Assembly: GCA_017452325.1 (NCBI GenBank)
Contig: JAFTMR010000003.1
Span: 1 to 53,036 of the forward strand
Direction: 5' to 3'
DNA: 53,036 nucleotides
Origin: Phascolarctobacterium sp.
Lineage (GTDB): Bacteria > Bacillota > Negativicutes > Acidaminococcales > Acidaminococcaceae
The notes beneath the pieces were generated by a model. It was not told where the DNA came from. It did no database searches and saw nothing but the letters and a program-made list of their open reading frames with translations. Of this stretch, positions 1,400 to 53,036 are shown piece by piece. The position numbers were made by a program, and so were the translations under genes. How positions within the stretch are numbered: the stretch's first letter is position 1; each line of letters begins with the position of its first letter.

Positions 1400-5663
<4,264 letters not shown>

Positions 5664-41435: not shown

Positions 41436-43064
41436 ATGTTTCAAAATAAACGATATATTACTGGTAAACAAATTAAGGATATGCTGTTAGGCGCTTATCA
41501 CAGCTTTGAGAAAAACTACCAAGTTATCAATGACTTGAATGTTTTTCCTGTTCCTGATGGTGATACCGGTACTAATATGATGCACACTATGGCTTCTGTA
41601 GCTCGTGAACTGAGTGCTATGAGTGACGAATCCACTGCTAGCGAAATTGGTCAAGCTGCTGCCAAGAGCGCAATTATGGGAGCACGCGGTAACTCCGGCG
41701 TAATTCTTTCCCAATTGCTGCGTGGTATTGGTCGTGGTTTAGCAGGCAAAAAGAATGTTAGTAATAATGAATTAGGCAAGGCCTTCCAATATGGGGTGCT
41801 TTTTGCGTATCGTAGTGTTTCCAAGCCGGTAGAAGGTACAATTTTGACAGTTGCCAGAGGCATGGCGAAAGGTGCTTATACCGCAACCCGTAACTGTGAT
41901 GATTTAGAAGAAGTGCTTAAAGAAGCTATTAGAGTGGGCAAGCTGGAGCTGGCAGAAACTCCGGAAAAGCTGCCTGCTTTGAAGGCTGCCGGTGTAGTTG
42001 ACGCAGGTGGTCAAGGCTTGATTGCTTTCCTTGAAGGCTGCTTGGCAGGCTTGCGTGGCGAGGACTGCGCAGAGATTAAGGTTACTCAAAAGGCCAACGT
42101 AAAGATGCAGGCTGAAGATGCAGAGCCTTTGGATTTAGAATTCCCCTATTGCACTGAATTTATCGTAAAAGGTGCAAGCGTAGATAAAAAAACTGTGGTA
42201 GAAGCCTTGGACGGCTTTGGTAACTCTATGATTGTAGCTGTTATCGAAGATATCGTTAAGGTACATATCCACAGCAAGAACCCCGGTAACGTGCTGAACA
42301 CTGCTCAACAATGGGGCACCCTCCACGATATCAAGATTGAAAACATGGTTGACCAACACGAAAACCGTATCTTTGCTGATGAGGAGGAAGCTGTGCAAGC
42401 TAATGGCAAGCGTGCCGGCGTAGGCATCCTTTCTGTTGCAGCAGGCGATGGCATTGCAAAAATTATGCGCGAGCTGGGCGCGGCAGAAATTATCAGCGGT
42501 GGTCAAAGCATGAATCCTCCTGTTGAAGATTTTGTAAACGCTATTGAAAATGGCGAATACGAGCAATACATTATCCTGCCCAATAATAAGAACATCATCC
42601 TGGCAGCAGACCAAGTTAAGAAAATGTTGGGTGTATCCAAGGTTGACTATGTTCCCAGTACCAACTTGGCACAGGGCATGACCGCCCTCTTCCACTTTGA
42701 CCCGGAACGCAGTATGGAAGAAAACACCGTAGTTATGGCAGAAGAAGCTAAGGCTGCTACCAGCGGTGCCATTACCATTGCGGTAAGGGATAGTATTGTT
42801 GGTGGAATGCAGGTTCATAAGGGAGAATACCTTGGCCTGCTTAATGATAAGATTTTCTGCACCGGCTTGAGCATTAAGCAAGTACTGGACAAAATGCTGA
42901 GCGCGGGCGATTACGAGCTTATCAGCATGTACTATGGTGAAGATATTACCAAGGAAGAAGCAGAAGAAATAGTTGAACATTTAGAAGAAATCAACGAGGA
43001 TTGGGAAATAGAGCTGTTCTACGGCGGACAACCCCTTTATCCCTTGCTGTTTTCCATGGAATAA
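41436..43064 (+). CDS. fakA: DAK2-domain protein YloV / fatty acid kinase catalytic subunit FakA-like
   Basis: LNVFPVPDGDTGTNM Dak2 motif, 542 aa. Paired with the DegV gene. Confidence 0.85.
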   Translation: MFQNKRYITGKQIKDMLLGAYHSFEKNYQVINDLNVFPVPDGDTGTNMMHTMASVARELSAMSDESTASEIGQAAAKSAIMGARGNSGVILSQLLRGIGRGLAGKKNVSNNELGKAFQYGVLFAYRSVSKPVEGTILTVARGMAKGAYTATRNCDDLEEVLKEAIRVGKLELAETPEKLPALKAAGVVDAGGQGLIAFLEGCLAGLRGEDCAEIKVTQKANVKMQAEDAEPLDLEFPYCTEFIVKGASVDKKTVVEALDGFGNSMIVAVIEDIVKVHIHSKNPGNVLNTAQQWGTLHDIKIENMVDQHENRIFADEEEAVQANGKRAGVGILSVAAGDGIAKIMRELGAAEIISGGQSMNPPVEDFVNAIENGEYEQYIILPNNKNIILAADQVKKMLGVSKVDYVPSTNLAQGMTALFHFDPERSMEENTVVMAEEAKAATSGAITIAVRDSIVGGMQVHKGEYLGLLNDKIFCTGLSIKQVLDKMLSAGDYELISMYYGEDITKEEAEEIVEHLEEINEDWEIELFYGGQPLYPLLFSME

Positions 43065-43133
43065 GAGAAGCAGAGGCTCCGCAACGCGCGGAGCCTTTAC
43101 TGTATGATTCGAATGTAGTTTGAGGGGAATTGT

Positions 43134-43424
43134 ATGGAAGAGATTATTATTTGTATTACTGTAGGCATCCTGCTAGGATGGTTTGATGTGCTTAGCTACA
43201 AGGTAAAAATGTGGCTGAACAAGCTGTCCCTGTGTTGCCTGTACCTGATGCTGGTTTGCTTGGGAGCGAAGATTGGCTGCGATGCTAATTTGTTGGCGCA
43301 GATAGAAACCTTAGGCAAGCAGTCCCTAATCTTGGGGAGCAGTACTATTCTAGGTACGATGGTGATGTTTTATATTATCATTAAGCTTTTTGCCCGCAAC
43401 TTTGACGCAGAGGAGGGCAAATAG
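43134..43424 (+). CDS. LysO-family (DUF340) membrane protein, small subunit-like
   Basis: 96 aa, three hydrophobic segments, immediately upstream of the larger DUF340 gene. Confidence 0.6.
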   Translation: MEEIIICITVGILLGWFDVLSYKVKMWLNKLSLCCLYLMLVCLGAKIGCDANLLAQIETLGKQSLILGSSTILGTMVMFYIIIKLFARNFDAEEGK

Positions 43425-43426
43425 TG

Positions 43427-44023
43427 ATGGTTTATTCTTTGTTTGTAGCCATCATTGGCGGGATTGGTTTGGGGTATTTGTGCTTTGACGTAAGCGATAA
43501 GCCTACCTTGGACACAGTGCTGATGACGGCGTTGAACTTTATGGTTTTGGTAGCAGGCATCGAGATTGGCGGGAATCGCAAGCTTTTGGCAAAGATATGC
43601 ACGCCTAAGAATATGGTGCTGGCTTTTGCCCTGCCTCTTGGAACTGTCATTGGCAGCTTTGCGGGAGGGTATTTAAGTAGCTTCTTAACGGGGCTCAGTG
43701 CTTACGACTCTATTTTGGTAGCCAGTGGCTTGGGCTGGTACAGCCTTTCCTCTGTAGTAATCAGCACCATGCACAGTACGGAGCTGGGAGCTATTGCTTT
43801 CTTAGGCAATATGCTGCGGGAGGTATCCTCTTTCATTTTGATACCAATTTTGGCGCGGTGGCATAGGCTGATGTGCTTTGCTCCTGGCGGCGCGGCGACT
43901 ATGGATTCGCTGTTGCCCTTGGTAATCAACTCTGCAGGTATGCATACAGGTATGTTCTCTTTCATCAACGGGCTAGTGTTGTCCTTGCTTGTTCCTGTGT
44001 TCTTGTCGTTGCTGTTGAGTTAA
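43427..44023 (+). CDS. LysO-family (DUF340) lysine-exporter-like membrane protein
   Basis: About 198 aa, polytopic. The GLGWYSLSSVVIS and GGAATMDSLLP segments resemble DUF340/LysO. Confidence 0.65.
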   Translation: MVYSLFVAIIGGIGLGYLCFDVSDKPTLDTVLMTALNFMVLVAGIEIGGNRKLLAKICTPKNMVLAFALPLGTVIGSFAGGYLSSFLTGLSAYDSILVASGLGWYSLSSVVISTMHSTELGAIAFLGNMLREVSSFILIPILARWHRLMCFAPGGAATMDSLLPLVINSAGMHTGMFSFINGLVLSLLVPVFLSLLLS

Positions 44024-44061
44024 AGGGTATAGTGGAAAATGTTTGCTGTTCATAAAATACG

Positions 44062-44090
44062 TTGACACTATAATCAAAAACAGGTACAAT
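44062..44090 (+). promoter_or_regulatory. Near-consensus sigma-70 promoter with no downstream plus-strand ORF (candidate antitoxin sRNA promoter)
   Basis: TTGACA, 17 nt, TACAAT. Confidence 0.55.
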
Positions 44091-44096
44091 GAAAGT

Positions 44097-44192
44097 ACAA
44101 AAGGCACTACCTAGACGGTTAGCCCTTTAAAAATTGGAAATTACAAAAGATAATCGCCGAGTTTTTCGAGGACTGAGGCGATTATTTTTTTG
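44097..44192 (+). ncRNA. Candidate about 95-nt antisense sRNA, convergent with and overlapping the 3' end of the 30-aa ORF
   Basis: Bounded by the promoter at 44062-44090 and the hairpin ATAATCGCC..GGCGATTAT plus T7 (44150-44192). No ORF. Prediction only. Confidence 0.3.
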
Positions 44193-44274
44193 CTTTGTCG
44201 GAACCAATCATATATCCGATACCGAAGAAAGAAGCGAATGCTCCTAATAATCCAATCAATTCGTTTACAGTCAT
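44182..44274 (-). CDS. 30-aa hydrophobic peptide, candidate type I toxin (BsrG/TxpA holin-like-toxin style)
   Basis: Not in the ORF track. MTVNELIGLLGAFASFFGIGYMIGSDKAKK. AAGGGGG RBS 8 nt upstream, own promoter and terminator. Confidence 0.45.
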   Translation of the reverse strand: MTVNELIGLLGAFASFFGIGYMIGSDKAKK

Positions 44275-44360
44275 GGGCAACACCCCCTTGCTTAATGCAT
44301 AGAGGGTAGCAAAACCCTCTTGCGAGGGCTAACCGCCTGTCATTAGTAGTGCCTAATGAT

Positions 44361-44389
44361 ATTTTAACAAAACATCCGCGAACATACAA
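44361..44389 (-). promoter_or_regulatory. Promoter for the small-peptide mRNA
   Basis: On the minus strand: TTGTAT, 17 nt, TAAAAT, preceded by a TGT (extended -10-like). Confidence 0.45.
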
Positions 44390-44395
44390 GCGAGA

Positions 44396-44434
44396 AACAA
44401 AAAGAAGTTCTCTTGAATAGAGGACTTCTTTTTA
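44396..44434. terminator. Bidirectional hairpin terminator/insulator upstream of the small-peptide promoter
   Basis: GAAGTTCTCT-TGAAT-AGAGGACTTC flanked by an A-run and a T-run. Confidence 0.6.
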
Positions 44435-44436
44435 TG

Positions 44437-44641
44437 CGAATCCCCTACAACTACTTCCGTTCAACAGTGACTCGCGACGCAACATTTTAGTAAAAAATAT
44501 CGTTGCCCACATATTCGCTTCATAGTGCTTCGTAAAAATTTAGAAAGTGCAGCTCAGGATGTGGTCTTAACGATATTTTTCTCGATTTTATTGTTGCTGC
44601 TCGTCACAATCGTTTCACTCAAAGTAGTTGTGAGGGGTTCG
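44437..44641. repeat. 205-bp imperfect palindrome (MITE-like long hairpin)
   Basis: Left end CGAATCCCCTACAACTACTT.. matches the reverse complement of the right end ..AAGTAGTTGTGAGGGGTTCG. The arms remain alignable almost to the centre (shared AAAAATATCGTT, CCACAT). Confidence 0.7.
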
Positions 44642-44704
44642 TTAGATTAAAATGCAGGAGATTTGTTTTGCATGAAGAAATAAAGAGGAAACATATATAA
44701 AAGA

Positions 44705-47191
44705 TTGGTGGGAGTTTTGTTGAAAGGTTTAACTGTAAATGAGGCCTTTAAAATTGCTTTTACAAATATACCCAAAGGGTTAGAATTTAGTTCTAAGGAA
44801 ATAGTTGACTTAGTAAGTAATTTCTATGATGGAGAAAAGAGTAGTATTCTTCCCCGAGATCATTGCTATAATAGTTGGAATAATGGTATCCCTAATATAG
44901 AGTGGTTACCATTGTTTGAGTATTTGTATGATGCAACTGATGATAAAAAGTTTAAATACCTTGGCGAGAACTTTTCTTATGACAGAGAGGTATATCACAA
45001 ACCAAGAAAAGGCGATATCAGATGCATTGGTAAGTGGGATAATGGTGTGTTTAATAAATATGATGGAGAAACAGGATTGGATGATGTATGTATGCTTGAT
45101 AAAAATGTTTTGGAAAGATACTTAAAAAAGTACAAAGAAAACATTGAAGATATAAGGTTTGGAACAGATAGAGAAATTTACAAGTGGGAAGCAGTGGCAC
45201 AATTTCAAAGTGAATGGAATATAGATGCTTCTAACTTTGTAGAAATGTTAGAAAAGGCTTTGGCAAAAACAGAAAATCTATTGACTGTCGGTATGTTTTT
45301 TCCTAAAGGTATGTTATTGGGACTTGCAAGTAAAGAGCCAGAAACAGTTAGAGCAATGTTCAAAGATTTGTATGATGAAAGTAAAGACTTAGAGCAACGT
45401 GTATCCAACTTTATTGCGAAAGCAGATGAATTGCATAAGCGGAATCCAGGTGGGAAAAAGCATTTTCAAGGTACAAGAGCTATTAGTGTATATCTTTGGT
45501 TAAAATATCCAGAAAAATATTATGTGTATCAGTATGCAATTTATAATTCTAATGCAAAAACATTAGGTGCTGATTATGTTATAAAAGGAAATGGAAAGCC
45601 TGAAACAATGATAGAAGGATTTAAATTCTATGATGAAGTGAAGGCTGTGTTGTCTGATGATAAGGAATTAGCAAAATTAAATTATGATAATTCTCTTGAT
45701 GTTTTTAGGGACGAAGCATTAAACACTTTAATTATTGACCTTGGGTTCTATATTTTTAAGCAAAACGAAAATTGGGTGCCAAGTTCAAAAGAATATGAAC
45801 CTAAAATATCTGTCGAACAATGGAGAGCATTATGGAATGATTCAGAAGTATTTGATGATAAATCCAAAATGTTGATGAATCAAATGATGTTTTTTAATGG
45901 TCAAGCTACTTGTTCTCAGTTGGCTGAGAAGTTTTTGGGTAACGCTGGAAAGTTTAGAAGCTATAATAATGCTTTTATGACTTTAGGAAGAAAGGTTTAT
46001 GAGAAAACAAATTGCCCCTTGTATGAAGATGGAGATGGGAAAAATTTTTGGTCTGTTGCTTGCGTGTATAAGAAAGTAGATAAAAAGAATGAGGAGGACA
46101 TTGCTGGTCAATATATTTTCAAACTTCGTGATGAGTTAGTAGAAGCTTTGCAACAAGAAGGATTGCAATTTGGTGGAGCTAATGTGGATATTCCTGTTAG
46201 TGGAGGAAGTGTTATGCCTAAACATCCTAAAAACTTAATCTTATATGGACCGCCTGGTACTGGTAAAACTTATAATACAGTAAATTATGCGGTGGCAATT
46301 ATAGAAAATAAAACTATTGAGGAAATTGCCCAAGAAGAACGAAGGGCAATACTGGATAGATATAACAAATACAAGAATGATGGACAAATTGAGTTCTGTA
46401 CTTTCCATCAGTCTTTTGGATATGAAGAGTTTATTGAAGGTATTAAGCCAGTAGTAGAAAATGGCAATGTGGTTTATAAAGTGCAGGATGGTGTGTTTAA
46501 AGACTTTTGTGAGAAAGAAGTAAGCGATGTGCCAGTGAATAAAGTTTTTATCATCGACGAAATCAATCGTGGTAATATCTCCAAAATTTTTGGTGAACTG
46601 ATTACTTTGATTGAAGACAGCAAGCGCATTGGTGCTGATGAAGAAATGCGTGCTCGTTTGCCTTATTCCGGCGAAAAGTTTGGTGTGCCCAACAATGTTT
46701 ATCTGCTTGGCACAATGAATACCGCTGACCGTTCCATTGCCTTGATTGATACAGCATTAAGACGCAGATTTAAATTTGTGGAAATGCAACCTGATGTTGA
46801 GTTGCTGAAGGGAATTGAAGTAGAAGGCGTTAGAATCAAAGAGCTTCTTGAAATGATTAACAAAAGAATTGAAGTTTTGTATGACCGCGAGCATACCATC
46901 GGACATTCTTTCTTTATGGGATTGAATAATGCTTCAACCATTGCAGATTTGGCAGAGGTTTTTGAATGTAATGTTATTCCGTTGCTGAAAGAATACTTCT
47001 ACAACGACTTTGAAAGAATTGCTGCGGTTTTAGGTGATGATTTGAACAAGAATGATGCTACTGTTAATTTCATTCTAAGGGAAAATGATTACGTTAAAAT
47101 TCCTAACAGCGAAATCGAAGTTCCGCCTGCCTATAAATTTAATTTTAGTGCTTTGGAAAATCCAAAAGCCTACAAAAAGATTTATGAATGA
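44705..47191 (+). CDS. mcrB: McrB-like AAA+ GTPase restriction subunit with a long (about 500 aa) N-terminal region
   Basis: Walker A LILYGPPGTGKTY, FIIDEINRGNISKIFGELITLIE and GTMNTADRSIALIDTALRRRF (the NTAD motif of McrB). No ATG start: TTG 44705 per the track, but TTG 44720 sits 5 nt after GGTGGGAG and may be the real start. Confidence 0.85.
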   Translation: MVGVLLKGLTVNEAFKIAFTNIPKGLEFSSKEIVDLVSNFYDGEKSSILPRDHCYNSWNNGIPNIEWLPLFEYLYDATDDKKFKYLGENFSYDREVYHKPRKGDIRCIGKWDNGVFNKYDGETGLDDVCMLDKNVLERYLKKYKENIEDIRFGTDREIYKWEAVAQFQSEWNIDASNFVEMLEKALAKTENLLTVGMFFPKGMLLGLASKEPETVRAMFKDLYDESKDLEQRVSNFIAKADELHKRNPGGKKHFQGTRAISVYLWLKYPEKYYVYQYAIYNSNAKTLGADYVIKGNGKPETMIEGFKFYDEVKAVLSDDKELAKLNYDNSLDVFRDEALNTLIIDLGFYIFKQNENWVPSSKEYEPKISVEQWRALWNDSEVFDDKSKMLMNQMMFFNGQATCSQLAEKFLGNAGKFRSYNNAFMTLGRKVYEKTNCPLYEDGDGKNFWSVACVYKKVDKKNEEDIAGQYIFKLRDELVEALQQEGLQFGGANVDIPVSGGSVMPKHPKNLILYGPPGTGKTYNTVNYAVAIIENKTIEEIAQEERRAILDRYNKYKNDGQIEFCTFHQSFGYEEFIEGIKPVVENGNVVYKVQDGVFKDFCEKEVSDVPVNKVFIIDEINRGNISKIFGELITLIEDSKRIGADEEMRARLPYSGEKFGVPNNVYLLGTMNTADRSIALIDTALRRRFKFVEMQPDVELLKGIEVEGVRIKELLEMINKRIEVLYDREHTIGHSFFMGLNNASTIADLAEVFECNVIPLLKEYFYNDFERIAAVLGDDLNKNDATVNFILRENDYVKIPNSEIEVPPAYKFNFSALENPKAYKKIYE

Positions 47192-47208
47192 TTTTACGAG
47201 GTATAAGC

Positions 47209-48489
47209 ATGAAAACTTATACTATTTATGAATATCAAAGTTTTGTCTGCAACAAGAGTAATTTACCTACTGGATATAAATCCATAGAATCCGAGAAGAC
47301 CTTTCAAGATTTAAAGCAGTTCATTTTGGAATGTAATGGTAAAAATGGGACAGATGCTTTGGATTTAATGTCCTGTTCCTACAGGAAAGGATTTGGTGAA
47401 GTTATTACAGCCAAGAATTATGTTGGCTTAATTGCTATGCGTTATGGGACTGTAATTGAAATTTTGCCAAAGGTTTCTCAGTCAGATGATTTTAATGCTA
47501 AAAAATTATTGATTGATATGTTGCGAACGGTAAGAGATTTACCATTTAAAGCTTTTAATGCTACGAAGATAGATTATTCACAAGTACCCCTGTTTGAAAT
47601 CTTCATCACTATGTTTATCAACGAAGTAAAGCTTTTGTTGCAGCAAGGTTTAAAATCTGATTACCTTTTACATCAAGATAACGAGAAGTTTTTGAAAGGC
47701 AAGCTACTTTTTGAAAATCATATTAAACAAAATTTGGTGCGTAAGGATAGATTTTTTGTTGAGTACCATCTCTATAATATTGACCGAGTAGAAAACAGAT
47801 TACTGAAAACTACTTTGTGCTTCTTGCTGAAATTTTGTAAGACGGCAAAAAACAAACGTGAGCTACAGATTTTGTTAGATTCTTTTGATGAGGTTAAGCT
47901 TTCACAGAATGTTGATGTAGATTTTACTTTGTGTTCCAAAAGCAGGGATATGAAGGCTTTCGAAAAGGTTTTGCAATGGTGCGAGATTTTTCTGAAAGGG
48001 AACAGTTTTACAAATTCACAGGGCAAGCATCTTGCCACAGCATTACTTTTCCCGATGGAAAAACTTTTTGAAAGCTACGTTGCGGAAAAGTTAAGCAAGA
48101 AATTGTCTTATGGCATCTTTAATGTGCGTAAGCAAGATGGCAAACATCACTTGTTTGAAAAGAAATTTGCTTTGCGTCCGGACATCGTAGTTGAGAAAAA
48201 GGAAGAAGATTTTACCGTAGTTTTAGATACGAAATGGAAACTTCTTTGTTCCGACAGCAGAATTAACTATGGTATCGCTCAAAGTGATATGTACCAGATG
48301 TATGCCTACGGCAAAAAGTATGAGACCGAAAAAGTGGTACTGCTTTATCCGGTGAACGAAAAGGTTACAGATTTGGGAGCTTCCGTCAATTTTCCTTCGC
48401 CCGAAAATGATAACGTAAATGTTCATGTGCGTTTCTTGGATTTATCGCGAAACGATTTCCTTGATGAAGTGGTAGCAGAGTTTTTCTGA
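47209..48489 (+). CDS. mcrC: McrC-like nuclease subunit (PD-(D/E)xK)
   Basis: LRPDIVVEKK..TVVLDTKWK and SDMYQMYAYGKKY. Follows mcrB directly. An alternative start at ATG 47188 overlaps the mcrB stop (ATGA). Confidence 0.8.
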   Translation: MKTYTIYEYQSFVCNKSNLPTGYKSIESEKTFQDLKQFILECNGKNGTDALDLMSCSYRKGFGEVITAKNYVGLIAMRYGTVIEILPKVSQSDDFNAKKLLIDMLRTVRDLPFKAFNATKIDYSQVPLFEIFITMFINEVKLLLQQGLKSDYLLHQDNEKFLKGKLLFENHIKQNLVRKDRFFVEYHLYNIDRVENRLLKTTLCFLLKFCKTAKNKRELQILLDSFDEVKLSQNVDVDFTLCSKSRDMKAFEKVLQWCEIFLKGNSFTNSQGKHLATALLFPMEKLFESYVAEKLSKKLSYGIFNVRKQDGKHHLFEKKFALRPDIVVEKKEEDFTVVLDTKWKLLCSDSRINYGIAQSDMYQMYAYGKKYETEKVVLLYPVNEKVTDLGASVNFPSPENDNVNVHVRFLDLSRNDFLDEVVAEFF

Positions 48490-48503
48490 TGTAGGAGAGG
48501 GAC

Positions 48504-49547
48504 ATGCCATTTTTAATTATTCGTAATGATATTACAAAAATGAATACAGATGCCATTGTGAATACTGCTAACCCCAAACCAGTGGTTGTTACCGGTCTTG
48601 ATAAAGCTATTTATCAAAAGGCTGGTTGGGATGAGCTGCTGACGGCGCGTAAAAAAATTGGTATTCTTGAAGTTGGCAAGGTTGCAATCACTCCTGCCTT
48701 TGCTCTTGCTGCCAAGTACATCATCCACACTGCTGGTCCCGTTTGGCAAGGTGGAAAGCACGATGAAGAAAATTTACTGTGTGCTTGTTATAAAAATGCT
48801 TTGTCCTTGGCGCAGGAGAAGAAGTGCAAGTCTATTGCCATGCCTCTGATTTCCACAGGTAACTATGGCTTTCCAAAAGAGAGAGCTTTTAAAATTGCTG
48901 TTGACGCAATCAAGGCATTCCTTTTGGAAAATGAAATACTTGTGTATTTGGTGGTCTTTGATAAAGATTCCGCACATGTTTCGCAAAAGCTGTTTGCTGA
49001 TGTCAAAAGCTATGTTGACGAAAAATACGTAAAGGCTTCTTTGGAAGATGAATACTGCTGTGAAAAATCTGAGTGTACCGAGTTTAACGTAAGAAGTTTT
49101 GATAGAAGCATAAAAAGCTATTCTGCCAAGACTTATTCTTTGCCGACGGGTACTCTTGCTTGTAACAAGGCAGTGGAAAGAAAATTAGAGGATTTATTGG
49201 CAAATCTTGACGATACTTTTTCCGAAGCCTTGCTAAAATGGATTGATACTAAAAATTTAAGCGACCCTGAAGTTTACAAGCGTACCAACGTGGATAGAAA
49301 GCTGTTCTCCAAAATAAAGAATAACAAAAATTACAAGCCAAGCAAGAATACGGCGATAGCCTTTGCCTTGGCGTTAGAGCTTAATTTGGACGAAACAAAA
49401 GATTTGCTAGGTAGAGCAGGCTATACTTTGAACCATTGTTATAAATTTGATGTTATCGTGGAATATTTCATCCGCAACAAAAATTACGACATTATGGAAC
49501 TGAACGAGGTGCTGTTTGCCTTTGATGAGCAGCTCATCGGTGCGTAA
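48504..49547 (+). CDS. Macro-domain protein fused to a C-terminal HTH-like domain
   Basis: Macro motifs NTDAIVNTAN, IIHTAGPVW and PLISTGNYGFP in residues 1 to about 165. C-terminal SDPEVYKRTNVDRKLFSKIKNNKNYKPSKNTAIAFALALELNLDETKDLLGRAGYTL. Starts 14 nt after the mcrC stop with a GGAGAGGG RBS. Confidence 0.8.
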   Translation: MPFLIIRNDITKMNTDAIVNTANPKPVVVTGLDKAIYQKAGWDELLTARKKIGILEVGKVAITPAFALAAKYIIHTAGPVWQGGKHDEENLLCACYKNALSLAQEKKCKSIAMPLISTGNYGFPKERAFKIAVDAIKAFLLENEILVYLVVFDKDSAHVSQKLFADVKSYVDEKYVKASLEDEYCCEKSECTEFNVRSFDRSIKSYSAKTYSLPTGTLACNKAVERKLEDLLANLDDTFSEALLKWIDTKNLSDPEVYKRTNVDRKLFSKIKNNKNYKPSKNTAIAFALALELNLDETKDLLGRAGYTLNHCYKFDVIVEYFIRNKNYDIMELNEVLFAFDEQLIGA

Positions 49548-49624
49548 ATGTCGCTTGCCATGCGACCACTCCTTTGCTGCAAAGACTTATACTAAAGTCA
49601 ACAAAGCAAAGGAGGTTTCTTTTT

Positions 49625-50269
49625 ATGAAACAATTAACAGAAGTAGTATTTATCTTAGACCGCAGCGGTTCCATGCATGGTTTGGAAAAAGATACCATTG
49701 GTGGCTTCAACAGTATGCTTGCCAAGCAAAAGGAGATTGAAGGGGAAGTGCTGGTTTCCACAGTTCTTTTTGATGACAAGTGCGAGATTTTGCACGACAG
49801 AAGACAAATCAACGACATGCAACCCATCACCGAAAAGGAATATTATGTGCGTGGTTGTACTGCCCTGCTTGACGCTGTTGGTGGAGCCATTCATCACATT
49901 GGTAACGTTCATAAGTACGCTCGCGAGGAAGATAGACCTGGCAAGACCTTGTTCGTTATCATTACTGACGGTATGGAAAACGCAAGTAAGCGCTACACCT
50001 ATCCCAAGGTGAAAGAAATGATTGAACGTCAGCAAAAACGTTACGGCTGGGAATTTATGTTTCTTGGCGCGAATATGGATGCCATAGCGGAGGCACGTCG
50101 TTACGGCATTAGACCGGAGATGGCTACTAACTACGTTTGCGATGAAGAAGGTACTGCTCTGAATTATGAAGCAGTGAGCGAAGCTATTTGCAGTATTCGT
50201 GCGTGCAGACCGATGACTGCGGCGTGGAAGGAAAAAATTGAAAAGGACTATGCCAAACGTGGAAGATAA
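49625..50269 (+). CDS. Small stand-alone vWA-domain protein with an intact MIDAS motif
   Basis: VFILDRSGSM, GCTALLDAVG and VIITDGMEN. Start at ATG 49625 behind AAGGAGG. Confidence 0.8.
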   Translation: MKQLTEVVFILDRSGSMHGLEKDTIGGFNSMLAKQKEIEGEVLVSTVLFDDKCEILHDRRQINDMQPITEKEYYVRGCTALLDAVGGAIHHIGNVHKYAREEDRPGKTLFVIITDGMENASKRYTYPKVKEMIERQQKRYGWEFMFLGANMDAIAEARRYGIRPEMATNYVCDEEGTALNYEAVSEAICSIRACRPMTAAWKEKIEKDYAKRGR

Positions 50270-50306
50270 TGAGTTAATATTCCTTCTAAGTTAATACGCA
50301 TAAACT

Positions 50307-50340
50307 AAAAACCGTTCCTCAAATGAGGAACGGTTTTATT
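50307..50340 (+). terminator. Rho-independent terminator after the vWA gene
   Basis: ACCGTTCCTC-AAAT-GAGGAACGGT followed by TTTT. Confidence 0.8.
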
Positions 50341-50342
50341 AC

Positions 50343-50371
50343 TTTACATACGTAATGTTACGTAGTAAAAT
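50343..50371 (+). promoter_or_regulatory. hicAB promoter with an embedded 16-bp palindromic operator candidate
   Basis: TTTACA, 17 nt, TAAAAT. The spacer contains TACGTAA-TG-TTACGTA (50349-50364). Confidence 0.5.
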
Positions 50372-50391
50372 CATCTTAAGGAGGGATGAAG

Positions 50392-50586
50392 ATGCCACTA
50401 ACTCCCAAAGAGATGATTAGGTTGTTAGAGAAAAATGGATTCATTCATATAAAAAGCAATAATGGATCGCATCAAAAATATTTTAATCCCAAGAAGAATG
50501 TAACTGTCATCATACCATTACATTCACGTGAATTAGGAAAAGGCTTAGAGCAAGCTATCTTAAAGCTTGCAGGGTTGAAACGTTGA
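50392..50586 (+). CDS. hicA: HicA-family mRNA interferase toxin
   Basis: MPLTPKEMIRLLEKNGFIHIKSNNGSHQKY is a typical HicA. ATG 50392 is better spaced from AAGGAGGG than ATG 50386. Confidence 0.85.
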   Translation: MPLTPKEMIRLLEKNGFIHIKSNNGSHQKYFNPKKNVTVIIPLHSRELGKGLEQAILKLAGLKR

Positions 50587-50606
50587 GGCTTGAGAGGTAG
50601 TTAATT

Positions 50607-51002
50607 ATGAAAAAGTATTTTTATCCAGTTATTTTTGAACCGGAAGAAGTGGGGGTTTCCGTATACGTACCTGACCTTCCCGGTTGTTTTACACAAGGCG
50701 ATTCTTTAGAAGAAGCATTGGATAATGTGCAGGAAGCCATGGGTTTATTTTTAGAGGATATTGATCCCAAAGATTATCCTAAGGCTACGAAACCTAACGA
50801 AGTGGATTTAGAAGGACAACAATTTATAATGATGGTCGCTTTCGATAAGTTGGCTTACGATAGGAAATATAATGCTAAAGCTGTGAAAAAGACCTTGTCT
50901 ATTCCTGCATGGCTTAATAATATGGCACAAGAAAGAAATATCAACTTCTCTAATTTGTTGCAAAAGGCATTACTTAATGAATTAGGTGTTACCCAACAAT
51001 AA
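50607..51002 (+). CDS. hicB: HicB-family antitoxin with a C-terminal RHH-like DNA-binding tail
   Basis: YPVIFEPEEVGVSVYVPDLPGCFTQGDSLEEAL is a typical HicB N-domain. Confidence 0.85.
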   Translation: MKKYFYPVIFEPEEVGVSVYVPDLPGCFTQGDSLEEALDNVQEAMGLFLEDIDPKDYPKATKPNEVDLEGQQFIMMVAFDKLAYDRKYNAKAVKKTLSIPAWLNNMAQERNINFSNLLQKALLNELGVTQQ

Positions 51003-51012
51003 TATATTCAGC

Positions 51013-51054
51013 AAAAAAACTCCGTCCCTCGTATGAGGAACGGAGTTAAGTTTT
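51013..51054. terminator. Bidirectional terminator (hicB / convergent metQ)
   Basis: CTCCGTCCCTC-GTAT-GAGGAACGGAG flanked by an A-run and a T-rich run. The stem resembles the hairpin at 50307-50340. Confidence 0.75.
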
Positions 51055-51063
51055 ATGAGCTTC

Positions 51064-51891
51064 TTACCACGCCGGAGTGATGGTACCTTTGAAGTATTCG
51101 TTTACGAATTTTTTGTTTTCAGCGGATTGGTAAACTTCTTGCAGTTGTTTGATGCGCGGGTCGTTTACGTTAGCTTCGCGGGTAACAAAAATGTTCAGGA
51201 ACGGGTTGTCTGCGTTTTCCAGCAAGATGGAATCGTTGGTGGGGTTAAGGCCTGCGGGCAGAGCGTAGTTGCAGTTGATAACAGCAACGGTCAGGTCAGG
51301 CAAGCTGTTGGGAATGATTGCTGCATCCAGTTCGCGGATAACCAAGTTTTTCGGGTTAGCAGTGATGTCCTTAACGTTGGTAACAACATTGGTTTTGTCT
51401 TTGATTTCAATCAAGCCTTTGTCAGCCAACAGGAGCAGTGCGCGACCACCGTTGGAGGGGTCGTTAGGAATACCAACGATTGCACCTTCGGGGATTTCTT
51501 CACCCTTTTTAACTTTTTGGGAATATACAGCCATGGGGAAGTTTACGGTTTTGAAAACTTCTACTAACTTAAAGGAAGGCTCTTTAGCCAAGGTTGCTTT
51601 CAGGTAGGGAGCGTGTTGCATGGAGTTTGCAAAGAGTTCCCCTTGATGGAGAGCAACGTTAGGAGTTACATAATCGGAGAATTCTACAACTTCGATTTTC
51701 AAGCCTTTTTTATCAGCCAATTTTTTTACATTGTCCATAATTTCAGCGTGGGGACCAGCGGTTACACCAATTTTAATGGGAGCAGAGGTATCTGCTTTTT
51801 TGTCAGCTTTCTTATCGCCGCCACAACCTACTGCGAAGGCGGTAAATGCACAAAGTGCTGCGATGCTTAAAACTTTAGCTAATTTCTTCAT
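51064..51891 (-). CDS. metQ: Methionine ABC transporter substrate-binding lipoprotein (NlpA/MetQ family)
   Basis: Lipobox FAVGC. MetQ-like body. Downstream of metI/metN. Confidence 0.9.
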   Translation of the reverse strand: MKKLAKVLSIAALCAFTAFAVGCGGDKKADKKADTSAPIKIGVTAGPHAEIMDNVKKLADKKGLKIEVVEFSDYVTPNVALHQGELFANSMQHAPYLKATLAKEPSFKLVEVFKTVNFPMAVYSQKVKKGEEIPEGAIVGIPNDPSNGGRALLLLADKGLIEIKDKTNVVTNVKDITANPKNLVIRELDAAIIPNSLPDLTVAVINCNYALPAGLNPTNDSILLENADNPFLNIFVTREANVNDPRIKQLQEVYQSAENKKFVNEYFKGTITPAW

Positions 51892-51969
51892 AATAAATTC
51901 CTCCTTAACATTTCTGGGGTACTTTATTTTAAATAGAAAGGCGCGCTATCCTTCTATTTAAAGGTAGAA

Positions 51970-52629
51970 TTACAATTTATTTTTATTGAGCTTCTTGCTC
52001 ATCCAGTCACCGAAGGATTGCATAACCTGAACCATTACGATGAGCACGACAACGGTAACAATCATAACGTCCATTTGGAAGCGTTGGTAACCGTAGCGTA
52101 TTGCCAAGTCACCCAAACCGCCGCCGCCAAGTGCGCCAGCCATTGCGGAATAACCAATTAAGCTGATAATGGCGAGGGTTACACCCAACACGATGGAGTG
52201 GAGTGCTTCCGGAAGTAAAACCTTGGTGATGATTTGCATGGGGCTTGCACCCATTGCTTGAGCTGCTTCGATGATACCGGGATTGATTTCCAGTAAGGAA
52301 GATTCAATGATGCGGGCAATGAAGGGCGCTGCAGAAATGGTCAGCGGAACGATTGCCGCGGTGGTACCAATGGAGGAGCCAACTATCATACGGGTTACAG
52401 GGATGATGGCAACCATCAAGATAATGAACGGAGTAGAACGGGTTGCGTTAACAATTGCGCCTAATACGGAGTTGATGGCTGCGTTGGGAAGGATGTGATC
52501 TTTGCGAGTTACGGTCAAAATCACACCCAGGGGCATACCTACTGCGGTAGCGAGTGCTGCAGAAGCGAAAACCATATAGCAGGTTTCCCAGAAAGATTTT
52601 ATCAAAAGTTCAATCATATCAGGACTCAT
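51970..52629 (-). CDS. metI: Methionine ABC transporter permease
   Basis: Polytopic permease. ATG at complement 52627-52629 behind GGAGGT, overlapping the metN stop. Confidence 0.9.
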   Translation of the reverse strand: MSPDMIELLIKSFWETCYMVFASAALATAVGMPLGVILTVTRKDHILPNAAINSVLGAIVNATRSTPFIILMVAIIPVTRMIVGSSIGTTAAIVPLTISAAPFIARIIESSLLEINPGIIEAAQAMGASPMQIITKVLLPEALHSIVLGVTLAIISLIGYSAMAGALGGGGLGDLAIRYGYQRFQMDVMIVTVVVLIVMVQVMQSFGDWMSKKLNKNKL

Positions 52630-53036
52630 AACCAATTACCTCCGTTTTCAGATTTTGGCTGTGCAGGTAAGCCAAGGCATTATCGATACCTTTGTGGGTA
52701 CCGGAGATTTCGATAATCAAAGTACCAAAAGGAACATCTTTCAGTTGAGCGATGTTACCGAACAGAATACTTACGTCTACATCAAATTTCTTAACCATAC
52801 CGGAAACGATGGGTTCGCCTGCAGAATCTCCCAAGAAGGAGATGCGTACGATGAGCTTGCTGCCTTCAACATATTGGCTATTCAGATTCATATTCCGGAT
52901 GATTTCAGGAAGCTCTGCATTCATAACGCTCTTGGTAAATTCTTTGGTGGTTTCGTGTTGGGGATTGGTGAATACTTCAACCATATCACCTTGTTCAATG
53001 ATGCTGCCATTGTCGATTACAGCAACACGATCACAA
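52619..53036 (-). CDS. metN: Methionine ABC transporter ATP-binding protein, C-terminal part with NIL domain (5' end outside the window)
   Basis: The reading frame is open to the window edge (..DRVAVIDNGSIIEQGDMVEVFTNPQHETTKEFT..), with an NIL-domain-like tail ending at stop 52619-52621. Confidence 0.85.
   Translation of the reverse strand, partial: CDRVAVIDNGSIIEQGDMVEVFTNPQHETTKEFTKSVMNAELPEIIRNMNLNSQYVEGSKLIVRISFLGDSAGEPIVSGMVKKFDVDVSILFGNIAQLKDVPFGTLIIEISGTHKGIDNALAYLHSQNLKTEVIGYES

Follow-up and report, generated by a model that had tools for sequence, protein, structure and literature searches.

A macro-HTH gene and a stand-alone vWA gene form a conserved pair, autonomous from McrBC, with a candidate operator and a predicted vWA promoter in their spacer

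We describe here a two-gene module in a 53,036-nt stretch of DNA from Phascolarctobacterium sp. (contig JAFTMR010000003.1, positions 1 to 53,036), referred to below as the window. The first gene encodes a macro domain joined to a predicted C-terminal helix-turn-helix domain (macro-HTH), the second a small stand-alone vWA protein with a metal ion-dependent adhesion site (MIDAS). The pair is autonomous from the mcrBC genes located directly upstream, which were inserted beside a pre-existing module, and the spacer between its two genes carries a conserved architecture of candidate operator, predicted -10 box and hairpin. In our judgement, macro-HTH is probably a one-component regulator of a promoter dedicated to vWA, and the module probably serves a response to ADP-ribosylation. 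The features of the module in the window are:

48504-49547, + strand: macro-HTH gene, 347 aa (PF01661, alignment, C-terminal model)
49550-49566, no strand assigned: candidate operator palindrome, the sole perfect copy in 53 kb, which tracks vWA
49569-49614, + strand: long hairpin (-21.1 kcal/mol, z -5.7)
49588-49593, + strand: predicted -10 box TATACT (invariant columns, fixed spacing)
49625-50269, + strand: vWA gene, 214 aa, stand-alone vWA/MIDAS, phrog_7371
50308-50337, no strand assigned: bidirectional terminator hairpin closing the module (-20.3 kcal/mol, z -7.8)

The macro-HTH fusion is present in at least 586 species-level genomes (one genome per species), and both protein families comprise thousands of members. 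Among the matches listed, the carriers of macro-HTH belong to Clostridia, Negativicutes, Erysipelotrichia and Bacilli, together with single metagenome-assembled genomes (MAGs) of Spirochaetia and Synergistaceae. Neighbourhood counts were made on 80 retained species-level loci, again with one genome per species (loci are given by their L number), and vWA was searched in these with a hidden Markov model of the vWA family. Loci in which the sequence continues for 800 nt or more past macro-HTH were considered informative (n = 74). In 69 of them, vWA lies downstream of macro-HTH on the same strand. This co-occurrence had been proposed as a check of the original prediction, which was made from the sequence alone and described a candidate ADP-ribose-linked pair without known precedent. 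The linkage is thereby confirmed, and the claim of novelty held as well: our literature search found no description, experimental or other, of the macro-HTH fusion, the macro-HTH/vWA pair or the operator, and neither protein matched PADLOC 2.0 at E <= 0.01.

The macro-HTH open reading frame (ORF) starts 14 nt past the mcrC stop (48489) with GGAGAGGG upstream, and the vWA ATG (49625) follows 77 nt past the macro-HTH stop, preceded by AAGGAGG at 49609-49615. Both positions agree with those reported before, and the strong hairpin that had been noticed just after vWA was located at 50308-50337. In contrast, the earlier statement that no terminator precedes position 50300 does not hold. The spacer between the two genes contains the terminator-like hairpin 49569-49614, which is overlooked by a simple terminator scanner because of its internal loops.

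The architecture of this spacer, missed in the original prediction, is conserved across taxa at lengths of 66-141 nt. It includes a palindrome, GTCGC-N7-GCGAC, which reads GTCGC-TTGCCAT-GCGAC in the window (family consensus wTGTCGCyTnnnArGCGACCa) and has one perfect copy in the 53 kb, at 49550-49566. Of 63 loci, 59 have the palindrome no more than 200 nt before the start of vWA. At seven loci where vWA is 2-4 kb away (L034, L036, L037, L046, L057, L062, L074), it stays with vWA and not with macro-HTH. At loci without vWA it precedes ARH (L005), ARH-SseB-Macro (L043) or HD_4 (L069), and where ARH separates macro-HTH and vWA there are two palindromes, one before each of the downstream genes (L012, L093, L100). 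No second copy was found upstream of macro-HTH, and the palindrome is absent from the phage vWA subfamily that occurs without macro-HTH. Furthermore, viral contigs were scanned blind with a 14-base operator/-10 pattern, and only sites fitting the strict consensus were interpreted. Such sites precede vWA in 22 of 27 cases and ARH in one. The non-fitting sites are essentially random; 89 of the 93 sites not associated with vWA (including those with no downstream ORF) lie off the strict consensus.

In each of 59 loci, a TAnnnT element begins 15-27 nt past the palindrome, and in 53 of them the distance is exactly 21 nt; shuffled sequences contained TAnnnT anywhere in this range 34 % of the time. 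The T, the A and the final T of the element are invariant columns, and the predicted start coincides with a conserved A. For the window, this predicts a vWA transcription start near A49600, with no recognisable -35 box, and places the centre of the palindrome at about -42.

The long hairpin overlaps this predicted promoter. Its 5' arm, CUCCUUUGCU, lies in the promoter spacer and pairs with AGCAAAGGAG, the Shine-Dalgarno region of vWA; an inner 5-bp stem forms around the -10 box, and the hairpin is followed by GUUUCUUUUU (U-run). We assessed its conservation by per-locus complementarity and folding z-scores. At least eight contiguous pairs connect the two regions in 42 of the 59 loci, with arm sequences that differ by lineage, and the median folding z is -4.5. 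RNAalifold, applied to a MAFFT alignment, returned the palindrome and, of the long helix, 4 pairs only, since the register of its arms shifts from lineage to lineage.

The right half-site of the palindrome changes together with the recognition helix of the HTH, as expected of a protein-DNA pair. The helix DR[KR]LFSKI is accompanied by a GCGAC right half-site in 59 of 59 loci, and the helix S/T-[KR]-QHFSKI by TTGAC or GTGAC in all four distinct loci that carry it (L020, L052, L084, L115/L119). The variant-helix genes lie at 10001-11035 in L020, 3987-5024 in L052 and 1463-2506 in L084, and the variant operators keep the same distance of 20 nt to the -10 box. Linked to the presence of the HTH and covarying with its helix, the palindrome is the likely cognate operator of this predicted XRE-type HTH.

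The macro-HTH protein consists of a MacroD-type macro domain (~aa 1-165), a linker with a conserved SYIDExY, and a predicted XRE-type HTH with extra helices (~aa 228-339). The macro domain matches PF01661 over residues 19-132 (E 2.1e-33, 115 bits, cut-off 22). The nearest PDB relatives of residues 1-165 are of the MacroD/YmdB type (9w48, 1spv, 5cb3, 5l9k; E 1e-31 to 1e-27), and the NCBIfam macro equivalogs all score far below their cut-offs. We found the motifs NTDAIVNTAN and PLISTGNYGFP as stated before, and N23, G31, D33, G119 and G122 are invariant in an alignment of 19 macro-HTH homologues. The MacroD signature consists of Nx(6)GG[VLI]D and G[VIA][YF]G, with a catalytic Asn and Asp (PMC8120803). 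In the window these motifs read N23-x6-T30-G31-L32-D33 and G119-N-Y-G122 and thus carry the signature, with minor deviations: the first position of GG holds S, T or G, and N is the usual residue in the middle of the second motif. Based on the retained residues, the macro domain looks catalytically competent.

The proposal of an HTH module in the C-terminal third is supported by the structural model and not by sequence scores. The latter remain below the Pfam cut-offs (HTH_19: 17.4 bits, cut-off 30.2; HTH_26: 16.4 bits, cut-off 22; E 0.004-0.011), and PDB sequence and profile searches with the domain returned nothing relevant. The AlphaFold model (pLDDT 88.7, eight helices) retrieved XRE-type HTH proteins alone as top Foldseek matches, namely Stl, DdrO, ClgR, C.BclI, SinR and NatR, with probabilities up to 0.99 and a root-mean-square deviation of ~2 A over 60-70 residues, yet with E-values of 0.2-3. 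Within the family, the predicted recognition helix (VDRKLFSKI, aa 263-271) hardly varies. The C-terminal domain alone matched 7,295 cluster representatives; many of those returned were short or chimeric metagenomic proteins with odd N-termini. Proteins of ~170-250 aa that lack the macro domain combine a 'YIDExY' linker with the same C-terminal HTH (P0301, P0309, P0344, P0346, P0375, P0387). Two macro-less YIDExY-HTH genes, at 5457-6023 in L105 and 8409-8975 in L107, have their own upstream palindrome, and phrog_4031 (626 aa) carries the same HTH domain at its C-terminus.

The vWA protein stays under all Pfam cut-offs (vWA-TerF-like 22.2 bits, cut-off 29.4; VWA 20.2, cut-off 23.8; VWA_CoxE 19.3, cut-off 26.4), had no match in NCBIfam and none of relevance in PDB sequence and profile searches. 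Its model (pLDDT 84) has a vWA fold, with 321 Foldseek matches at E <= 1e-3, among them TRAP and integrin I-domains (E 3e-8 to 1e-6, probability 1.0). The MIDAS residues were correctly recognised from the start: all of 17 homologues retain D12, S14, S16, T79 and D115. The homologues begin at the same MKQLTE start, and the closest named relatives are Phascolarctobacterium MAGs with 77-78 % identity.

Beyond its cellular relatives, the protein belongs to phrog_7371 (E 3e-56), an uncharacterised family of stand-alone phage proteins. Same-length homologues with 30-40 % identity are encoded by 220 sequenced phages of Streptomyces, Microbacterium, Pseudomonas, Gordonia and other hosts. The phage genes sit among early or replication genes (SSB, AAA_24, DnaB, ThyX, RlaP), and these copies have neither a macro-HTH partner nor the operator. 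Taken over gp62 of Microbacterium phage Paschalis (L290, locus 3992-4624), the 219 other sequenced phages and L133-L168, the stand-alone homologues are 30-49 % identical and stem from lytic actinophages, phages of Pseudomonas and large uncultured phages. Some phage homologues are annotated as 'DNA ligase', for which we see no visible basis.

In the mechanism that we propose, macro-HTH would be a one-component transcription factor, often expressed from whatever operon sits upstream. A dimer of the XRE-type HTH would bind GTCGC-N7-GCGAC. The macro domain would respond to a ligand of the ADP-ribose type (free ADP-ribose, O-acetyl-ADP-ribose or an ADP-ribosylated macromolecule) and, if catalytically intact as predicted, could also destroy this ligand. 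Ligand binding or turnover would alter promoter occupancy and switch vWA, and in other species the genes for an ADP-ribosylglycohydrolase (ARG), an HD phosphohydrolase or SseB-Macro that carry the same operator would be switched as well. Upstream transcripts, here those of mcrBC and macro-HTH, would fold the hairpin, with the ribosome-binding site paired and the U-run behind it, and would be either terminated or untranslatable. A transcript starting at ~49600 would hold the 3' arm only, which would leave the ribosome-binding site of vWA free. With the ribosome-binding site sequestered on upstream transcripts, vWA would therefore be made only from its own regulated promoter. Activation is the more probable sign of regulation, given an operator centred at about -42 and the lack of a -35 box. 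The induced MIDAS vWA protein would act as the effector, most likely by binding modified or acidic protein ligands in a Mg2+-dependent manner. As to its role, the module most likely responds to ADP-ribosylation imposed by phage or toxin ADP-ribosyltransferases. A more far-reaching version, which we put forward tentatively and with more doubt than belief, regards macro-HTH as the sensor of an unrecognised surveillance pathway that is widespread in Bacillota, including many gut commensals, and that activates an insulated, phage-shared MIDAS vWA effector upon ADP-ribosylation or attack-derived ADP-ribose signals. If true, this would be an innate immune or damage sensor operating at the level of transcription, with a defined operator, ligand class and output.

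The genes that recur beside the pair bear on this role. In the 80 loci we counted ARG 11 times at position +1 or +2, ArsC/Spx-like genes five times, HD_4 phosphohydrolase four times, 3-methyladenine glycosylase three times, and SseB-Macro and Y-family polymerase twice each. In the window, no ARG gene stands beside the pair. Pfam detected no transferase or sirtuin domain in the flanking genes mcrB, mcrC, hicA and hicB, and the remaining genes of 41436-52984, identified only by synteny with annotated relatives, show none either.

Iyer, Burroughs, Anantharaman and Aravind (2022, Viruses 14:1977, section 3.8; PMC9503650) have predicted 'ARG-centric' host systems directed against viral ADP-ribosylation. 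These consist of ARG, phosphatases including alarmone-type HD proteins, Nudix-HTH or WYL-HTH sensors and vWA, SseB or TY chaperones, with Macro and NADAR domains and restriction nucleases as optional parts; they are computational predictions from actinobacteria, planctomycetes and proteobacteria (PMC9503650). Our loci share with them the sensor-HTH, the vWA or SseB chaperone, ARG, HD and Macro parts, restriction nucleases in some cases, and the absence of a linked ADP-ribosyltransferase or sirtuin, and the window itself has the vWA chaperone without such a linked gene. In contrast to the published systems, the core here is macro-HTH plus vWA with ARG as an option (~11 of 80 loci), the lineage is Bacillota, and the sensor is a functionally analogous Macro instead of a Nudix or WYL domain. 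The pair is thus a new form of a kind of system that has so far only been predicted computationally; PMC9503650 mentions neither a Macro-HTH fusion nor the Firmicute pair, nor an operator, promoter or hairpin. A side observation concerns one Lachnospiraceae locus (L007, 11912-16711), where macro-HTH, vWA and ARH are followed by a gene with a faint WCX match, DUF2828/DUF7788, RtcB and RlaP. This RNA-repair-type cluster resembles WYL-regulated systems cited in PMC9503650.

Among characterised regulators, the closest analogue in logic is NrtR, a Nudix-HTH protein that responds to ADP-ribose (sensing as cited in PMC9503650). Both would combine an enzyme-like, ADP-ribose-binding domain with a DNA-binding domain and a palindromic operator beside the target genes. 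Unlike NrtR, macro-HTH would have a Macro sensor and a C-terminal XRE-type HTH, and its predicted targets are vWA, ARG and HD genes and not NAD biosynthesis. Moreover, NrtR acts by repression, whereas the operator at about -42 without a -35 box suggests activation in our case. The MacroD/YmdB O-acetyl-ADP-ribose deacetylases and mono-ADP-ribosyl hydrolases are the best sequence relatives of residues 1-165, and the catalytic Asn, Asp and Gly are retained. However, these are single-domain proteins of ~170-210 aa, while macro-HTH has a 180-residue extension of linker and HTH and is genetically locked to vWA. Type II Thoeris offers a precedent from bacterial immunity, in that the Macro domain of ThsA senses a signal derived from ADP-ribose and thereby controls an effector; the output there is a fused effector domain and not transcription, and no TIR partner accompanies our pair.

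For the detection of phage- or toxin-imposed ADP-ribosylation by bacteria, the only proposal that we found is computational (PMC9503650), and the module gives a testable handle on it. This handle comprises, in hundreds of Firmicute species, a 17-bp candidate operator, a predicted promoter and start, a sensor of a known ligand class and one output gene. The module would also provide the first functional context for phrog_7371, a family so far uncharacterised in the 220 sequenced phages.

Several observations weigh against this interpretation of the module. The HTH assignment is model-based, with weak sequence scores and Foldseek E-values of 0.2-3, and a single change in evolution may account for the covariation of helix and operator. 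It may also be that the palindrome is read at the RNA level, or that a different protein recognises it. An ARG gene, the defining core of the published ARG-centric systems, is missing from the window. The vWA protein is 70-80 % identical across orders, which is unusually conserved for an immune effector, and the pair often lies among housekeeping genes. This conservation and context, together with the lack of a PADLOC match for either protein, argue for a stress or housekeeping role over defence. Finally, the location of the phage homologues in replication regions means that vWA may function in DNA metabolism rather than act on modified proteins.

Part of these points are captured by the main rival, in which the regulatory wiring is the same and the trigger is endogenous. 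The module would then belong to a general stress, DNA-damage or NAD-metabolite response, set off for example by sirtuin-derived O-acetyl-ADP-ribose or ADP-ribosylated nucleic-acid ends. We consider this possible, though not the probable case. It is in line with the conserved chromosomal position of the pair between housekeeping genes, with upstream neighbours that are mostly metabolic, with the high identity of vWA across orders, with the PADLOC result and with the phage homologues in replication regions. It also gains from the 3-methyladenine glycosylase, Y-family polymerase, DNA_alkylation and ArsC/Spx-like genes that lie between macro-HTH and the operator-vWA unit. Against an endogenous trigger, ARG, HD_4 and SseB-Macro recur without an ADP-ribosyltransferase or sirtuin, which is the published signature of systems countering imposed ADP-ribosylation (PMC9503650). 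In addition, the pair is bordered on either side, in this lineage, by hot spots of McrBC, HicAB and other toxin-antitoxin genes; a minority of species have restriction or candidate defence genes immediately upstream, and integrases adjoin the pair in L123.

Two sets of loci illustrate these neighbourhoods. Genes for 3-methyladenine glycosylase, Y-family polymerase, a DNA_alkylation protein, S24 peptidase and ArsC/Spx-like proteins lie between macro-HTH and the operator-vWA unit, or adjoin it, in L036, L037, L046, L057 and L062, and also at 630-2851 in L090; their presence near the pair hints at a link to DNA damage. In L123 (2071-4829), two tyrosine integrase genes are located directly upstream of macro-HTH, vWA and ARH; the module can therefore be located within a mobile element or at the border of one.

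A different reading of the spacer assigns its function to RNA. Here, it would be a cis-acting element made of a 5' hairpin and a helix that sequesters the ribosome-binding site, riboswitch-like or a protein-dependent attenuator, on a bicistronic macro-vWA mRNA, and the palindrome would not be bound as DNA. Indeed, the palindrome can fold as a hairpin of 5-7 bp, the second helix shows compensatory changes, the folding z-scores are strong, and the U-run past the helix resembles an attenuator. However, the five outer pairs of the palindrome are invariant in 59 loci, which is conservation of sequence without covariation, and a TAnnnT with the three most conserved -10 positions at a fixed 21 nt is the signature of a DNA promoter. 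The element also precedes vWA when the gene lies kilobases from macro-HTH behind other genes, and its half-site covaries with the recognition helix of the HTH. A search of 44000-51100 against Rfam with a permissive threshold gave only a chance match to CRISPR-DR28 (E 0.63). Taken together, we regard a purely RNA-based element as unlikely.

The original prediction placed foremost the idea of an accessory module to McrBC, with the pair transcribed together with mcrBC and coupled to it in function. The flanking features that bear on this idea are:

44029-48503, + strand: inserted low-GC cassette outside the module, with a toxin-like ORF, mcrB and mcrC; missing in the syntenic locus L001
44705-47191, + strand: mcrB (DUF7225 and AAA_5)
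47188-48489, + strand: mcrC (PF10117, E 2e-93)
50338-51045, + strand: hicA/hicB insertion outside the module (Pfam HicA/HicB); missing in L169

The short distance of macro-HTH to mcrC with no terminator between them speaks for such a coupling, as do McrBC-like genes directly upstream in two unrelated species (L027, L013) and downstream of vWA in L004; by a rough estimate rather than a computation, this recurrence is above random placement. In L027, HsdR, AAA_5 and McrC (PF10117) lie upstream with a gap of 24 nt to macro-HTH, and in L013 AAA_5 and RE_LlaJI with a gap of 32 nt. A few further loci have restriction or candidate defence genes upstream. These cases stand against 78 of 80 loci without McrBC-like genes within 10 kb, leaving two with such a system upstream of macro-HTH. 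The genes at -1 and -2 are spread over 136 Pfam families, each represented twice at most, and a same-strand upstream gene ends within 30 nt of macro-HTH in 22 of the 80 loci.

More direct is the comparison with close relatives that have identical flanks. In L001-L003 (one relative, several contigs), macro-HTH is 55 % and vWA 81 % identical to the proteins of the window, and the flanking genes are the same, with DegV, FakA and two Lys_export genes upstream and MetQ/MetI/MetN downstream. There, the macro gene starts 13 nt past the Lys_export stop, and both mcrBC and hicAB are absent. The DNA alignment with L001 skips exactly 44029-48503 of the window (44028 -> 48504), a segment with a GC content of 0.30-0.39 as against 0.44-0.50 in its flanks. 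L169, which is 95 % identical to the window from 48267 on, retains an 87-aa McrC remnant before the intact pair and has no hicA/hicB, its alignment skipping from 50337 to 51046. In L004, the macro protein is identical to that of L001, and a homologous mcrBC (McrB 69 %, McrC 93 %) is found downstream of vWA. From L001, L169 and L004 it therefore follows that the pair is the stable element and that both of its flanks are insertion hot spots in this lineage.

The contrast in GC content between mcrB and vWA, noticed early on, was reproduced with 0.30-0.39 for mcrBC, 0.38-0.42 for macro-HTH and 0.45-0.46 for vWA. With relatives that keep the pair intact without mcrBC, a differing GC content and a vWA gene predicted to be insulated, we consider a functional extension of McrBC to be very improbable. 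The alternative that had been offered alongside it, an independent two-gene system, is the one that the relatives support. Likewise, the suggested read-through from mcrBC is plausible, and incidental, as far as the macro-HTH gene is concerned, but it would not simply extend to vWA, which has its own candidate operator, a predicted -10 box and a hairpin that would sequester the ribosome-binding site. The insertion of mcrBC, hicAB and a type-I-toxin-like gene around the module is a warning against equating juxtaposition in a defence island with functional coupling.

Least probable of all is a toxin-antitoxin-like pair with macro-HTH as a de-ADP-ribosylating, DNA-binding antitoxin and vWA as the toxin: two genes with the DNA-binding one first, the macro-domain antitoxin DarG (PMC8120803) and a neighbourhood rich in toxin-antitoxin genes would fit, but vWA is not an ADP-ribosyltransferase, has no toxin-like features, occurs alone in lytic phages and is far more conserved than usual toxins, the macro domain is of the MacroD/YmdB and not the TARG1/DarG type, and the operator lies between the genes instead of before both. 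With DarTG, the pair has in common a macro domain in a two-gene module, which in DarG reverses ADP-ribosylation in a conflict system; unlike DarTG, it has no adjacent DarT-like transferase. On the grounds given here, we rejected both the toxin-antitoxin and the DarG-like reading.

The flanks themselves contain further small elements. At 44182-44274, the minus strand encodes a hydrophobic peptide of 30 aa, MTVNELIGLLGAFASFFGIGYMIGSDKAKK, that resembles a type I toxin; its ORF has a purine-rich ribosome-binding site, is followed by a hairpin and shares the inserted cassette with mcrBC. Between the Lys_export operon and mcrB, a strong hairpin with a U-run is located at 44399-44433 (-18.2 kcal/mol, z -5.4), which could be an upstream terminator or part of an antisense RNA to the small toxin-like ORF. 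On the other side, the hicA/hicB insertion is bounded by two related 30-nt terminator hairpins (50308-50337 and 51018-51047), and L169 and L001 have a single hairpin adjoining metQ that is homologous to 50308-50337. Between vWA and this metQ terminator, L001 (9855-10130) carries a 49-aa ORF followed by what by eye appears to be a decayed toxin gene, another sign of a toxin-antitoxin hot spot in the downstream flank.

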